DNA of 62,030 nt, filler included, from Candidatus Coatesbacteria bacterium (GTDB lineage Bacteria; JAFGND01), in NCBI GenBank assembly GCA_016927185.1. It is 4 parts of 4 records of this genome, joined end to end, with 100 filler letters (N's around TTAATTAATTAA, not from the genome) between each part and the next. Parts side by side here need not be neighbours in the genome. Positions count along the whole stretch, not along the records: positions 1 to 10,329 come from JAFGND010000109.1; 3 more parts are not named here. The stretch is one strand, 5' to 3'. Below the pieces are notes generated by a model. That model worked only from the letters and a program-made list of their open reading frames with translations. It had not been told where the DNA came from and did no database searches. Shown here piece by piece: positions 1-10,929 of the stretch. The first letter of the stretch is position 1, and each line of letters starts with the position of its first letter. The position numbers and the translations under genes were made by a program.

Positions 1-237
1 CCATGCAGAAATCAGATACTCAATATACGCTATGCACTTCCCAAGAACACGAAAGTAAGCATGAAGGTAAGAAACCTTCTCGGGCAGACAGTTGCAGTAC
101 TCATGGAATCAGAAACTCACAAATCAGGCAATTACATGGTACACTGGATCCCAATGAATTACTCATCAGGTGTTTATATTGTTGAAATCACAACAAACGA
201 AAAGACAATTACAAAATCAATTTTGATTTTGCGTTAG
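1..237 (+). CDS. 3' end of a secreted protein: T9SS type-A-like C-terminal sorting domain (5' partial; missed by ORF track)
   Basis: Frame +1 is open from base 1: PCRNQILNIRYALPKNTKVSMKVRNLLGQTVAVLMESE...SSGVYIVEITTNEKTITKSILILR, TAG at 235-237. About 48/78 aa identical to the C-terminus ending at 2209. Confidence 0.85.
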   Translation, partial: PCRNQILNIRYALPKNTKVSMKVRNLLGQTVAVLMESETHKSGNYMVHWIPMNYSSGVYIVEITTNEKTITKSILILR

Positions 238-258
238 TCATTGACATAGTATTTAACG

Positions 259-286
259 AAAGGCGGTCTTAAAACCGCCTTTTTTT
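259..286 (+). terminator. Rho-independent terminator
   Basis: AAAGGCGGT-cttaaa-ACCGCCTTT stem followed by a T run, just after the stop at 237. Confidence 0.85.
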
Positions 287-391
287 CTGTTTATCGACCT
301 TGAAATAATCATTCAAGATGATTCAACAAAAAAGATCTTGACTAAAAAAACGAAAAATTTTCAATATACAATATATTTGAAAGGAGGTAAT

Positions 392-2209
392 ATGAAATTA
401 ATTGCATCGATTTTTTTAATTCTTTATCTTTTCAATCCACTGTTAGCAAGAGAATGGACATTGCAGGAAACAAAGAATAATATCAGCAAAAATGGTAACA
501 CTTGGATTGCAGATGAGACTTTTTTCTCGAGACTTCCAAAAGAAGTGAAAAAACTGTTTTTCTATAAGGATGAAGCCTTGCTGAAACTTGACAGCACGAT
601 ACCTGTCCATGCCAATAAAGGATTAAAAGCACCAGATCATATTGATTACAGGAATTTCGATGGTAAGAATTACATGACACCAGTAAAAGACTTTGGACAT
701 GGCTGAACATCCTCAAGTGTTTTTGCTCTACTGGCTTCAGTAGAAACGGATATCAAACTATTTTACAATTTAAGTGAGATAAAACCAGATTTATCAGAAC
801 AGTATTTTCATAGCTGTTTATCACAAAATGATAAAAATTTGTCTCTTGATAGTCTTGCTCATCTAATGATGAATAATGGAGTGACATGGGAATCCTGCTG
901 GCCATACGAATGCAGGAATGCCAATTGCAATGAAAGATGTACTGATTGGGATTTTGTCCAGCAGAAAATTCAGTCTTATACAAGAATACCTTATGGAGAA
1001 GTAGAAATGAGACGCAATGCATTAGCTAACAAAGAAGGGATTTTGATTTCTCCGATGAAAATCTATGGTGATTTTCAGTATTACAGAGGTGGAGTTTATG
1101 AATGTGATGAGAATTCTGGATATCAAGGAATGACAGTAGTAAATGTAATTGGATATGATATTCCAGAGAATTACTGGATAGTAAGAAATGTCTGGGGAAC
1201 AGGCTGGGGTGAACAAGGTTATATGAGAGTAAGACATGGAGGTGCTGATGAGGTTGGAATGTATGAATGTTTTTATGTAGCTGTCCTTGAAATTGCCAAT
1301 CATCTATGGTATCTGGAACCTAAGGGAGGTCACTATTATTAATATGGGAGAGAAATAGAAATAAAGTGGAATAGTCTAGGGATAGATAAAATTAACATAT
1401 TTTATTCTACTGATAAAGGAACTAGCTGGACAACTATTGCATCAAATGTTGATGCAAGTTCCCAGGAATATAGTTGGTATCTGCCTGCTACACCAGCGAA
1501 GATCAAGATAAAGCTCGCTGATACTCAACATACAAGGGAAGGTAAGTGTGCTATAGCGGCAGCAATGACTGAAGGGGAATTCACTGTAGGTCCTGAAAGA
1601 ACAGTAACAATGACTTATCCAAATGGTGGAGAGACATTCTATAATGGAGAAAAATATTATCTTACATGGGATTGTACTGATAATGTTAGCACCATAAATA
1701 TTTATGGTTCTACAGATAATGGTTTGACCTGGCTTCCTGACAGAATAGCTTCTTCTGAAGATGCAAGCAAGAAAACATATTTATGGACTGTTGATACAAG
1801 CAAATTTCCAGAAACAACTCAGGGTAGAATGAAGATAACAGATATTGAATTTGAAGAGGATATCTTTGATATTGATGATGGAGTTTTTACAGTGTCAAAC
1901 GATATGAATTTCAAGGAACAAAAAACAAAACTGCCAATTCCGAAAGAGACTGGCCTCTGGATAAATCCAAATCCATGCAGAAACAGGATTATGAAAATTG
2001 AATATGCACTTCCATCTTCATCAAAAATAAGCCTGAAAGTAAGAAATCTTATAGGTCAAACTGTTGCAGTATTAATGGATTCTGAATTCCAGATAAAAGG
2101 TAATCACAGGATAAATTGGGTTCCTGTCAATTTATCTTCAGGCATTTTTATTGTAGAATTGACAACAGAGGGAAAAACGATCTTTAAACCTATTTTAATA
2201 TTGAAATAG
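392..2209 (+). CDS. Secreted papain-fold (peptidase C1A-like) protein with two Ig-like repeats and T9SS-like CTD; interrupted by in-frame TGA (704-706, possible Sec) and TAA (1340-1342); recoded gene or pseudogene
   Basis: SD AAGGAGGT at 381-388, ATG at 392, signal peptide. ORFs 338-706, 839-1342 and 1565-2209 share one frame, and the stretches between them are open. C1A motifs PDHIDYRN, TPVKD, DLSEQY, WPY, FQYYRGGVY, YWIVRNVWGTGWGEQGY; PxGG...W Ig-like repeats; NPNP...SSGIFIV CTD. Confidence 0.8.
707..751 (+). promoter_or_regulatory. Candidate bacterial SECIS-like stem-loop directly 3' of the in-frame UGA
   Basis: Perfect 7-bp stem TCTACTG(727-733)/CAGTAGA(738-744) with GCTT loop starting with G, 27 nt after the TGA. 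Possible lower pairings GTT/AAC and ATCC(709-712)/GGAT(748-751). Confidence 0.45.
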
Positions 2210-2210
2210 T

Positions 2211-2241
2211 AAAAAAAGCCACTTCTTAGGTGGCTTTTTTT
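2211..2241. terminator. Bidirectional intrinsic terminator between convergent genes
   Basis: AAAAAAAGCCAC-ttcttag-GTGGCTTTTTTT. Confidence 0.85.
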
Positions 2242-2261
2242 ATTCATTTTATCTGCTATTT

Positions 2262-3071
2262 CTATTGATACTCGTCTTTTTCTTTCTCCTTATCGTTATC
2301 TTTGTCATCACTGTCCCCAATTCTAATAGCAGTTACTTCACCTATTTTTCTTCTTATTTGCATATATTTATGCCTGTAGTTTAAATTGTCTGGATAAAGA
2401 CGAGTCAATGTTTTGAAAATTCCTTTAGCTAAATCATATTTACCTATTCTGGCTAGAATATCACCTTTCCAGTATAGGTATTGTTCATTTTCTGGTTCAT
2501 CCTGGAGTTTTTTCTCCACTGCCTTCAGGAATTCTTCCATTATCTCTTTTGCTCTTGCAGTTCGTTTTGTTTTTATGTACAATACGCACAAAGAATACAT
2601 TGCTTTTGCATTATCTGGTTCATAAGTTAATACTTCTTTGTATTCTCCAATCGCTTCATCAGCTTTTCCAGTTTTTTCGTAATTAAATGCAAGACCCATA
2701 TGTGCAAGAACGTAACCAGGTCTGATTTTAATACTCCTCTTGAAGGATTTCTCTGCCTCGCTAAATTCATTGTTTTTTACATGCAGCCAACCTATTTCAA
2801 GGAATATTGTTGCATCATGGTCATTCATGTAAACCGGATCATCATAACGATTGTTGGAAAGAGCTTTGTAATACTCTTTTATCGCTTCTGCGTATTTCTT
2901 TTCAGCAGCTAATTTTTTCGCATTCGTTTCTGCCTTATCTCTTTCCTCATCGTTATAAAACCAGGCTGAACCAGAAGGATCTTTCTTTGTATCTCCTTCT
3001 TCAGAAAAGAGAGGTTTAGCTAAAAGGAAAGCAGCTAAAACTAGTATTACTGTAAGTTTTTTCGCTAGCAT
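2262..3071 (-). CDS. Exported tetratricopeptide-repeat protein
   Basis: Signal peptide; TPR-like helices (AHMGLAFNYEKTGKADEAIGEYKEVLTYEPDN); SD GGAGG upstream. Confidence 0.85.
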   Translation of the reverse strand: MLAKKLTVILVLAAFLLAKPLFSEEGDTKKDPSGSAWFYNDEERDKAETNAKKLAAEKKYAEAIKEYYKALSNNRYDDPVYMNDHDATIFLEIGWLHVKNNEFSEAEKSFKRSIKIRPGYVLAHMGLAFNYEKTGKADEAIGEYKEVLTYEPDNAKAMYSLCVLYIKTKRTARAKEIMEEFLKAVEKKLQDEPENEQYLYWKGDILARIGKYDLAKGIFKTLTRLYPDNLNYRHKYMQIRRKIGEVTAIRIGDSDDKDNDKEKEKDEYQ

Positions 3072-3085
3072 ATTTCCTCCATTTT

Positions 3086-4735
3086 TTATTCATCTGTGCT
3101 TGTATCTGTTTCATCAGGCTGTAAATCCAATTCACTTAGATTTAAAACCTTAAACTCAATTCTTCTGTTTTGTGAACGTCCATATTCTGTCATATTATCT
3201 GCTATTGGTTGACTTGCACCATATCCAACTGCATTAATTCTGTTTTCCTCAATTCCACCTTTATCTAACAAATATTGACGGACAGATTCTGCACGTTTCT
3301 GACTTAGAATTTGATTATGTGTAACCCCACCTAAATTATCAGTATGCCCAGCAATTTCTACTCTCATTTTGGGATAGGCTTTCATTGTCTTGATAGCTTC
3401 GTCAAGATCCTGGTAAGCATTTTGCTGAATATCCCATGAATTGCTTGGGAAAGTTACATTACGTAAAATAATGACAGCTTTGACCTTAGGTCTTTTCACT
3501 ACAACTTTGACAACTGGTTTCTCATCAGGACATCCGTCATCATCCTGGTAGCTATTAACTGTCTCGGGTGAATTTGGGCACTTGTCTTTAGTATCAGGGA
3601 TGCCATCTTTATCATTATCAACGTCAGGACATCCATCCTCATCTTCAAATCCATCATAATCTTCTGGTTCATCAGGACACTTATCTTTGTTATCCTGGAT
3701 TTTATCATGATCCCTGTCTGGAGGTATTAAAGCTGATGCAAAAGATAATCCCAAGGCAAATCCGACACTTGGAAACAATCTGTTTCTTGTTCCAAAAGCC
3801 TTGTCTGCTTCTGAGGAACCCCATTTCCAGTCAGCCGGTAATGAAGCCATTCCCTTGGCATCTAAATCCTCTCCCAAGCCAAAATTTGCCAGCAAAGTCA
3901 TTGAAAAACCAACTGGAGTTGTCAATCTTACCCCTGGAGAAATATAATGTGGGGAGTTTGTTGGTTTAATATTTTCATTTCCCAGATATGGAGCCCAGTA
4001 CCATTCAAGCATACCTGTTACCCATTGAGTTGGAAATTCAATCCCGATACCAAATGGTAATTGGTGTGCTGAAGGATATACTTCTTTGTTATGCATCTGA
4101 TAACCTACGTTAGCATGAAACCTGAATGGGGCATCAGGAGCTTCTTTTATCAAATCAAGTGTGAATAAGGCAGAAACTCCAAACATGACCTTGTCTTCAG
4201 TGCGTGGACGCAAACGGTAGGGATCTGTATTCTTACCAGTTGGTATAGTCAGTTTGGTTTGCAAGGCAACATTCCATATTGGATCATGTCGTCCTGGATA
4301 TCCACACTTAAGATACCAATCCAGATCCCCAACTCCGTTATTTGTTGGAGGTTGAACATCATATCTGTCAACCAGATCTTCCAGATCATACTTGTCTATA
4401 TACCATACATTATGCATACTAGTTTCAAGATAATCTAGTATAGAGTAGCAAATAGTACTGTTTACAGTCGCATCAATAATCATGTCTTTTACTGGTTGTT
4501 TTTCAAAACTGTTATTGAACTTTGCAAATGTAAAATTTTTCATAGTACCATAAGTACCCCAGAAAGCAAATCCCAGCCTTGTTCTTCCCATGGTGTCTGC
4601 TGCTATAATGTTATAAAGACCATTTACTCCAAATGGTGTTGGATTATTTGAAACACCTTCTCCAACACTGCTTGCAAATGCACTAGATATCACAGCAAGG
4701 ATTGTGATTAAGAAAAACATTTTTGAAGTCCGCAT
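3086..4735 (-). CDS. OmpA-family outer membrane protein with thrombospondin type-3-like Ca-binding repeats
   Basis: Signal peptide, barrel-like N-terminal region, DxDxDG/DKCP repeats, OmpA_C motifs VEIAGHTD, LSQKRAESV, NRRIEF; start moved to ATG 4735 after SD AAGGGGGT. Confidence 0.9.
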   Translation of the reverse strand: MRTSKMFFLITILAVISSAFASSVGEGVSNNPTPFGVNGLYNIIAADTMGRTRLGFAFWGTYGTMKNFTFAKFNNSFEKQPVKDMIIDATVNSTICYSILDYLETSMHNVWYIDKYDLEDLVDRYDVQPPTNNGVGDLDWYLKCGYPGRHDPIWNVALQTKLTIPTGKNTDPYRLRPRTEDKVMFGVSALFTLDLIKEAPDAPFRFHANVGYQMHNKEVYPSAHQLPFGIGIEFPTQWVTGMLEWYWAPYLGNENIKPTNSPHYISPGVRLTTPVGFSMTLLANFGLGEDLDAKGMASLPADWKWGSSEADKAFGTRNRLFPSVGFALGLSFASALIPPDRDHDKIQDNKDKCPDEPEDYDGFEDEDGCPDVDNDKDGIPDTKDKCPNSPETVNSYQDDDGCPDEKPVVKVVVKRPKVKAVIILRNVTFPSNSWDIQQNAYQDLDEAIKTMKAYPKMRVEIAGHTDNLGGVTHNQILSQKRAESVRQYLLDKGGIEENRINAVGYGASQPIADNMTEYGRSQNRRIEFKVLNLSELDLQPDETDTSTDE

Positions 4736-6286: not shown

Positions 6287-7117
6287 TCATGGTTTCCTGC
6301 AGGAAGTGAACCTGTCTCTTTCAGCCATATCTTTGTATGAAGTTATTTGTATAAAGCCATTCATATTCAAGATGTTCCTGCATTTCTCAGCTTGATTATC
6401 TCCATGTTCATAACACAAGAACCCCTTGTTTTTTAATTTCGTAAATGATATAGTAGCTATAGTTTTGATAAAATCAAGTCCATCTTTGCCAGAAAAAAGG
6501 GAAAGATTAGGATCATAATATCTTACTTCATCAGGCAAATTACACTTATCAGAAATCGGTATATAAGGAGGATTGCACAGAATTGCTGAAAATGAATTAT
6601 CCTTGAAACAAGAAAGCCCGTTTCCTCTTATTATATCAATACTTATATTGTTCATACGTGCATTTCTTTGGGCTAGTTTTATTGCCTTTTTTGAAATATC
6701 AAGAAGAATTACAACAAGATCTTCTTTTTCCTTTTTTATTGACAAGCCGATAGGTCCTGAACCACAACAGAGATCCAGAATAATGTTTGAAGGCAAGTCA
6801 TTAGGTATTAAATCAATCATCATTTCAGTTTCCATTCTTGGAATAAAAACACCTCTCTGTGTCTTCAGGTTTATTTTTCTAAATGGATATTGACCTAATA
6901 ATAATTGAAGTGGTTTTCCCCCCAGCCTCTTTTCAACAATAGCTTCTATTCTTCTTATCTGTGTTTGATTTAATGAAAGATCAGAAATATCGTTTTTTCC
7001 AAGCACTTGTTGAAAAATCCATAAAGCTTCATGTTCCAATGACTTACCAAGAATAGCCTTTATCTGTATCAGGAATTCCGTTGCTTTTATGTAAGAAGAT
7101 TTTTTTCTGGATGTCAT
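6287..7117 (-). CDS. prmC: Release factor glutamine methyltransferase
   Basis: VFIPRMETE, LDLCCGSG, NPPY, GKDGL, EHG..Q motifs. Confidence 0.9.
   Translation of the reverse strand: MTSRKKSSYIKATEFLIQIKAILGKSLEHEALWIFQQVLGKNDISDLSLNQTQIRRIEAIVEKRLGGKPLQLLLGQYPFRKINLKTQRGVFIPRMETEMMIDLIPNDLPSNIILDLCCGSGPIGLSIKKEKEDLVVILLDISKKAIKLAQRNARMNNISIDIIRGNGLSCFKDNSFSAILCNPPYIPISDKCNLPDEVRYYDPNLSLFSGKDGLDFIKTIATISFTKLKNKGFLCYEHGDNQAEKCRNILNMNGFIQITSYKDMAERDRFTSCRKP

Positions 7118-10429: not shown

Positions 10430-10929
<500 letters not shown>

Follow-up and report, generated by a model that had tools for sequence, protein, structure and literature searches.

A putative selenocysteine codon in a catalytically dead papain-fold protein with a type IX secretion tail from Candidatus Coatesbacteria

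The type case of a bacterial selenoprotein gene with a downstream selenocysteine insertion sequence (SECIS) hairpin is fdhF, the formate dehydrogenase gene of Escherichia coli. Genes of this type share (i) an in-frame UGA aligned to Cys in homologs, (ii) a hairpin within the coding sequence, 16–37 nucleotides (nt) downstream, with a G opening a small apical loop, and (iii) a genome that carries selA, selB, selD and tRNA-Sec, with Cys-bearing paralogs alongside. Bacterial selenoproteins described to date are, to our knowledge, almost always oxidoreductases that use selenocysteine (Sec) in the catalytic site. Here, we describe a gene at positions 392–2209 (+ strand) of a 62,030-nt stretch of DNA (hereafter the window; length includes filler) from Candidatus Coatesbacteria bacterium JAFGND01 (GCA_016927185.1). 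The locus displays each of the above features, and we propose that its in-frame UGA at 704–706 is read as Sec, a reading to which we give a probability of roughly 0.65. It differs from described bacterial selenoprotein genes in that the putative Sec is not a catalytic redox site, but one half of a structural disulfide in a fold without a known redox role; in that its hairpin loop begins GC rather than GU or GG; and in that no Sec-bearing orthologs are known from other species.

With the papain family (MEROPS C1A), the predicted protein shares a full-domain Peptidase_C1 match, the fold, Asn175, Trp177, the Cys56–Cys95 pair and an N-terminal pro-region. Unlike that family, it has Phe for Gln19, Ser for Cys25 and Thr for His159, an inserted His103, no Cys63, and a TGA in place of Cys22 (for papain numbering, and for the disulfide pairs Cys22–Cys63 and Cys56–Cys95, we follow what we take to be the textbook assignments). 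The NCBIfam family 'T9SS-dependent M6-like inactivated metalloprotease' likewise combines a protease fold lacking catalytic residues with a type A sorting tail of the type IX secretion system (T9SS). The fold here is papain-like rather than M6, however, and the match to that family involves the shared tail only (19.3 bits, against a cut-off of 600); we saw no record of Sec in that family. Finally, the family table of PMC9312934 includes a selenoprotein family of trypsin-like serine proteases from ocean metagenomes: a hydrolase fold with reported Sec-containing members, to which the fold of the window protein is unrelated.

The frame runs from the ATG at 392 to the TAA at 2207–2209, a total of 605 codons, with only two in-frame stops: the TGA at 704–706 (codon 105) and a TAA at 1340–1342 (codon 317). 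Gene calling splits it into three pieces, of 104, 158 and 214 amino acids (aa). The translation contains TPVKDFGHG-(TGA)-TSSSVFALLASVE and, downstream, DLSEQY, WPY and YWIVRNVWG, just as a preliminary description of this DNA had reported; the second stop mentioned there is also present, to which we add that it differs between strains. The features of the gene are as follows.

381–387, + strand: Shine-Dalgarno-like AAGGAGG, 4 nt before the ATG, read directly from the sequence.
392–2209, + strand: C1-like protein with a T9SS tail; a single 605-codon frame with two in-frame stops.
392–448, + strand: probable signal peptide (MKLIASIFLILYLFNPLLA), assigned by eye and by alignment with the hydrophobic N-termini of paralogs, with no predictor.
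632–1270, + strand: papain-fold (Peptidase_C1) domain, predicted to be catalytically dead.
704–706, + strand: in-frame TGA at the invariant Cys22 column; proposed Sec codon.
727–744, + strand: hairpin of 7 base pairs (bp) with a GCUU loop, 27 nt past the TGA; proposed core of a bacterial SECIS element.
1340–1342, + strand: in-frame TAA; CAA (Gln) in a contig from sequencing run X2.
1343–1963, + strand: Ig-like middle region with weak Kre9_KNH and Big_7 matches; frame open.
1964–2197, + strand: T9SS type A C-terminal sorting domain.
2208–2244, + strand: terminator-like hairpin, the sole one between 283 and 2400.

The first line of evidence for recoding is the position of the TGA. MAFFT places it on the Cys22 column in two alignments, one of four paralogs and one of 59 sequences (the window protein, two paralogs, and 56 proteins chosen from the 150 best database representatives), in agreement with the Cys22-equivalent position that had been proposed by anchoring on a nearby Phe. 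In the larger alignment, from which all column counts below are taken, this column is Cys in 58/58 homologs. We also screened every in-frame TGA of the genome against the genome's own open reading frames (ORFs) and then against Pfam, removing many off-frame artefacts by eye; this screen replaced two others, of stop-separated open frames and of codon scores, that were too noisy. In it, the column of the window TGA is Cys in seven of eight paralog matches and Tyr in the eighth. Three further 'TGA at Cys' rows (contigs C60, C21 and C77) look like non-coding frames and were left out of the counts. If all single-base changes are assumed to occur at equal rates, the chance that a random nonsense change falls on a Cys codon is ~0.034–0.059 per gene, and that two independent ones—in the window gene and in a paralog on contig C66, described below—both do so is ~0.002. 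The preliminary description had named homologs that all carry Cys and lack the hairpin as a sign against recoding. That pattern does hold for the paralogs and distant homologs; these are not orthologs, and copies from the same species keep the TGA. On sequence grounds, Cys in all homologs is the ordinary pattern of a Cys/Sec pair.

The second line of evidence is the hairpin, which is exactly as first described: a perfect 7-bp stem (727–733 TCTACTG, 738–744 CAGTAGA) enclosing the loop GCTT at 734–737, with 27 nt between the A of the TGA and the first loop base, and an energy of -8.6 kcal/mol. The bacterial SECIS model in the main text of a 2026 review (PMC13188914) comprises a loop of 3–9 nt, an upper stem of 4–16 bp, a distance of 16–37 nt from the UGA, and a G in the first two loop positions. 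The window hairpin, with its 7 bp, GCUU loop and distance of 27 nt, falls within these published limits. As controls, we took the best hairpin within the same limits at each of 7485 Cys codons in genome ORFs of at least 300 codons; the window hairpin is equalled or beaten at 93 of these (1.2%). The same measure gives 1.3–3.1% for five classic selenoprotein genes of this genome and 4.3% for the C66 paralog site, while no qualifying hairpin occurs at the Cys22 column of three Cys-bearing paralogs. An Rfam scan of the window locus, the C66 paralog and selD (E up to 10) returned no SECIS hit, even at the certain selD site, and is thus uninformative.

Thirdly, the organism has the means to insert Sec. 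The genome is a 109-contig metagenome-assembled draft (93% complete, 0.6% contamination). The Sec machinery, of which the preliminary description noted no gene in the window, is encoded elsewhere in it, with all components above curated cut-offs: selB (334.6 bits), selA (342 bits; an intact 383-aa ORF, the reported stops falling outside it), selD (327 bits) and tRNA-Sec (68.3 bits; called by ARAGORN as tRNA-SeC(tca)). The selA gene (L006 1459-2610, - strand) is a short form that matches its model from position 55 only, and its N-terminal domain may be missing. selD itself contains an in-frame TGA, the U in SCAGUASKLG, and together with four further classic selenoprotein genes it carries a hairpin of the same class as that in the window. 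Two of the four are AhpC/TSA-like genes with signal peptides and a UxxC motif (C47:4722-5270, - strand, and C70:9639-10205, + strand; loci L049 and L050), both with an AGUUA loop 16 nt past the UGA; that is, they encode exported selenoproteins. The others are a FlpD/MvhD gene (CCNWU; C82:21912-22700, - strand, L052), whose 148-bit match spans the TGA, and an HdrA-like gene (CxxU; C82:24389-25732, - strand, L051) ~1.7 kb from it on the same contig. Together, these sequence features indicate that the organism reads UGA as Sec in classic families.

The fourth line of evidence comes from other strains. Near-identical DNA occurs in public sequencing runs, among which no RNA run was listed. We compared Logan contigs ~98–99% identical to the window over window positions 1–3200; these are contigs of depth 3–7, not raw reads, and some rows at 1450–1648 also come from more divergent contigs. 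Runs X2 and X3 come from the same study, X4 from a second one, and neither study is the probable source of the assembly; the probable source, run X1, has no contig over 322–1177 or at 1340. Contigs of 455 nt (X3) and 449 nt (X4) cover the codon at 704–706 and keep the TGA, their differences from the window (6/6 and 4/4) all being listed at other sites, which answers the earlier concern that the TGA might be an assembly error. A 1134-nt contig from X2 has 16 differences, of which 14 are listed, none of them at 704–706; and a 104-residue protein with the change A62T, as in X2, recorded from a 1134-nt contig, stops just after Gly104. At the second stop, X2 reads C at 1340, turning TAA into CAA (Gln). 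Codon 317 being CAA in this strain, the gene does not always carry the second stop. One record, from a 4680-nt contig that is maybe from the same source sample, is a 158-residue ORF that matches the window's without a difference and likewise ends at the TAA. An X3 contig over 1340 was not used for the TAA question (~85% alike, with 62 differences in 421 nt). Two single substitutions are recorded here in their own right: all three other runs have G at window 710, changing Ser107, two residues past the putative Sec, to Ala; and X2 alone has T at 1187, changing the conserved Asn175 to Tyr.

Since the TGA is present in both lineages, whatever differences they show arose with it in place. The table of strain differences holds the best-supported 40 of 210; 22 of those listed are in frame, comprising 15 synonymous changes, six non-synonymous changes and the one stop/Gln change. 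Downstream of the TGA the listed changes number 20, of which 14 are synonymous, five non-synonymous and one stop/Gln. Were changes random, 0.205 of them would be expected to be synonymous (binomial p 2.5e-6; with 0.33 in place of 0.205, 8e-4). Between TGA and TAA, 6/11 are synonymous (p 0.013), and past the TAA all eight are. With the signal peptide encoded ahead of the TGA and the sorting tail 500 codons behind it, selection on the tail is sensible only with read-through.

What kind of protein would be made? Pfam Peptidase_C1 spans residues 81–293 (E 3.5e-28), and the closest solved relatives, by profile matches to the PDB, are the catalytic domains of cathepsin C (dipeptidyl peptidase I; E 5.7e-37). 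An AlphaFold2 model of residues 1–316 has a pLDDT of 90.7 and a pTM of 0.89, with lower confidence near residues 101–110 and 141–150, two remodelled loops. The model thus still predicts the fold with confidence, which we count in favour of Sec. Trp177 (57/58 homologs), Asn175 (57/58), Cys56 and Cys95 (58/58 each) are retained in the window copy. The catalytic apparatus is not: Gln19, of the oxyanion hole (Gln in 58/58), is Phe; Cys25 (55/58) is Ser; His159 (55/58) is Thr; Cys63 (56/58) is a gap; and there is a single-residue insertion, His103. The preliminary description had read the site as that of a papain; its placement of the UGA at Cys22 stands, while an active papain does not. To judge from these residues, the window protein is catalytically dead, and no cysteine peptidase of the usual mechanism.

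Export of the protein is suggested by both of its ends. The N-terminus is readably hydrophobic and signal-peptide-like, and the C-terminus matches the T9SS type A tail model TIGR04183 at 25.9 bits (cut-off 23); the corresponding Pfam match, PF18962 at residues 524–602, scores 25.2 and is below its cut-off of 27. Of the T9SS machinery, the genome shows a SprA_N match over cut-off in a 1925-aa ORF. No match to GldM (TIGR03517) was found in the genome, where the control was likewise silent and further T9SS components were not searched. In the assembled sequence, the Ig-like region and the sorting tail lie behind the TAA, i.e., the export tail is cut off.

The genome carries three close paralogs of the window gene. 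Two of them, on contigs C79 (53% identity, no stops) and C107 (51% identity; L020, C107:3-1424, - strand, running off the contig end), have canonical QCGSCWAF/QCGACWAF and GGH motifs and look like live enzymes. The third, on C66 (48% identity), occupies L019 1465-3318 with 617 codons and a single in-frame TGA (L019 2017-2019), its frame being otherwise intact through the T9SS tail. This TGA aligns to Cys in 8/8 own-genome matches, at a column that we equate with Cys95 (Cys in 58/58 homologs), and it is followed 21 nt later by the start of a qualifying hairpin (loop GCUUACUG). The C66 protein has Asp at Cys25, Ile at His159 and Thr at Cys56; Cys22 and Cys63 are retained. The two copies are therefore reciprocal: where the window gene has its TGA at Cys22 and has lost Cys63, the C66 gene has its TGA at Cys95 and has replaced Cys56 by Thr. 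By alignment, each putative Sec takes the place of one Cys of a disulfide pair, the other Cys of which has been lost. The C66 paralog may be a better selenoprotein candidate than the window gene.

These observations can be assembled into the following proposal. SelB, carrying Sec-tRNA(Sec), would bind the hairpin at 727–744, 27 nt past the UGA; Sec would be inserted at residue 105 and the ribosome would continue. The product would be exported, and would consist of a signal peptide, pro-region, papain-fold domain, Ig-like region and T9SS sorting tail. Its lone selenol, replacing Cys22, would lie two residues past His103, where the former cleft opens and immediately ahead of the central helix. 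Since the Cys63 partner is deleted, this selenol would be unpaired; the C66 paralog would be a mirror image of the same arrangement. We can only guess at the selenol's role, as a redox-active or covalent-capture residue. The CAA-to-TAA change at codon 317 would remove the Ig-like region and the sorting tail in the assembled strain; the TAA probably truncated the gene only recently, relatives having it whole, and the assembled copy either has just been disabled or yields a product without the tail. A broader reading is that a disulfide Cys turned into Sec twice, independently, within a single expanded family of exported papain-fold proteins in this genome, with the partner Cys and the protease site discarded both times. 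This would give secreted 'seleno-pseudoproteases', each with a lone selenol at the surface, and a role for Sec away from its customary catalytic redox sites. We advance this more tentatively than the recoding itself, and as slightly less than an even bet.

Several points weigh against Sec at 704–706. (i) No ortholog outside this species was found in any set searched, so the usual cross-species support for Sec is lacking. (ii) The strains that keep the TGA are ~98.6% identical and share it by descent, and the strain table is partial and of low depth. (iii) The loss of catalytic residues and of a disulfide partner is also expected under relaxed selection. (iv) Sec does not explain the second stop, TAA, in this assembly. 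(v) Both candidate loops are GCUU, as opposed to GU or GG in the five classic genes, which is within the model but atypical. (vi) At the column of the C66 TGA, a hairpin just as strong (-6.3) occurs in the window copy, which has Cys there, indicating poor specificity. (vii) Folding of the whole segment gives z = -1.43 at the window site, with 17/200 shuffles as good, and z = -0.16 at the C66 site, although such z-scores are ill-suited to a short local hairpin. (viii) The first hairpin test used slightly wider limits, set before the published ones; the figures given here are those of the rerun. (ix) Plain nonsense occurs in other exported multi-copy families of the genome. One PQQ-like beta-propeller gene with a T9SS tail (C38:14812-16305, - strand, L053) has a TGA where all other repeats have Gly, and another on C47 (near 6495-6497, - strand) has a TAA at a repeat position occupied by Tyr in 12/12 matches. 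Neither has a SECIS-like hairpin where one would be relevant—the TGA-at-Gly case has no qualifying hairpin—and both stops are probably recent nonsense mutations or strain variants.

Much of this would follow naturally if the window and C66 genes were decaying duplicates: copies of an active C1 peptidase, made by tandem and dispersed duplication, that lost their function, in which the TGAs are ordinary nonsense, the TAA is a second hit and the hairpin is a coincidence. Such decay would account for the losses in both copies (Gln19, Cys25, His159 and Cys63 in one; Cys25, His159 and Cys56 in the other), for the second stop in this assembly and for the absence of cross-species support, and it has a precedent in the nonsense cases just described. 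Moreover, once a disulfide partner is lost, the remaining Cys is free to change. We nonetheless consider decay the less likely explanation. The two copies have diverged to 48–53% identity with the live ones and yet show no frameshift and, the strain-specific TAA aside, one stop each; both TGAs fall on invariant Cys columns (p ~0.04–0.05 each), and both are followed by qualifying hairpins, in the top 1.2% and top 4.3%. Variation that arose since the TGA is strongly synonymous, both in the 14 of 20 listed changes downstream of it and in the eight of eight past the TAA, and another strain has CAA in place of that TAA.

Far less probable is that the TGA is a true stop. The gene would then encode a 104-residue exported fragment, of signal peptide plus pro-region, that could inhibit the neighbouring live peptidase in the manner of a propeptide, and the remainder would be a relic or have an internal start of its own. 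Papain-family enzymes are known to have free-standing inhibitors that resemble propeptides; the 104-aa ORF begins like a signal peptide, behind a strong Shine-Dalgarno sequence, and gene callers predict exactly this fragment. However, the 500 codons downstream are open and vary almost only synonymously, and a sorting tail is useless without an N-terminal signal peptide on the same chain. Further, no terminator follows the TGA, and no convincing internal start with a ribosome-binding site was seen (the next in-frame start listed after the TGA is a TTG at 839). Lastly, an assembly or sequencing error at 704–706, or a genetic code that assigns an amino acid to TGA, is barely credible: the genome is a metagenome-assembled draft, but the TGA is kept in independent contigs of two further studies. 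As the preliminary description held for the window, TGA is otherwise an ordinary stop, ending 8/23 window ORFs of at least 300 aa and 363/1397 long ORFs genome-wide.

Searches for orthologs and precedents give the Sec reading its wider setting. Across all searches for orthologs, only own-genome paralogs or relatives at 24–39% identity were recovered. Specifically, (i) 40 other genomes, all kin at domain level only, contained no close homolog of the gene family; (ii) GTDB species genomes gave 28 pattern matches, none of them confirmed; (iii) metagenome contigs gave four loci at only 24–33% identity, and no ortholog; and (iv) neither a set of 5.8 billion proteins (near and shorter lengths) nor 1.84 billion representatives contained one. 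The organism seems to be without near relatives in the genome set searched. The preliminary description knew of no characterised selenoprotein with a C1A fold and a C-terminal sorting domain, and among the papers listed by our literature searches we found, by title or abstract, no papain-family selenoprotein. Similarly, the words papain, peptidase and Peptidase_C1 have no occurrence in the main texts of PMC13188914 and PMC9312934, and a search on selenocysteine together with type IX secretion gave, by title, no selenoprotein that is T9SS cargo. As far as sequence can tell, the recoding machinery is standard, and the novelty would lie in the fold, in where Sec sits and in how the protein is exported.

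Two features precede the gene in the window.

1–237, + strand: 3' end of an upstream paralog, whose 78 codons here encode a T9SS tail; the translation is 62% identical to the tail of the studied gene.
258–283, + strand: terminator-like hairpin closing this upstream gene.

Terminator-like sites occur only here and at 2208–2244, so the whole 605-codon frame looks like one transcription unit. The tail at 1–237 is nearly identical to that of the C79 paralog. The C107 gene is cut by its contig end ~60 codons earlier, and the two may be parts of one gene: window 1–237 is possibly the rest of the active C107 C1 peptidase gene. If the contigs join in this way, the window gene may directly follow a live paralog, forming a tandem live/dead pair. 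The window itself comprises several contigs and 264 N; bases 1 to ~10429 are contig C43 and bases 10430–41920 are contig C44, and features are not to be read across the joint at 10430.

If the proposed reading is true, the known uses of Sec would extend to a disulfide position that has lost its partner, in an exported protease fold without activity, and the window and C66 proteins would be the first papain-fold and first T9SS-cargo selenoproteins among those we found in print. Gene callers split genes of this kind, so lineage-specific selenoproteins like these go unnoticed when a survey demands that other species have Sec-bearing orthologs. The paralogs of this one genome would then capture a fresh Cys-to-Sec conversion together with a newly evolved SECIS hairpin, and would bear on how selenoprotein genes originate.

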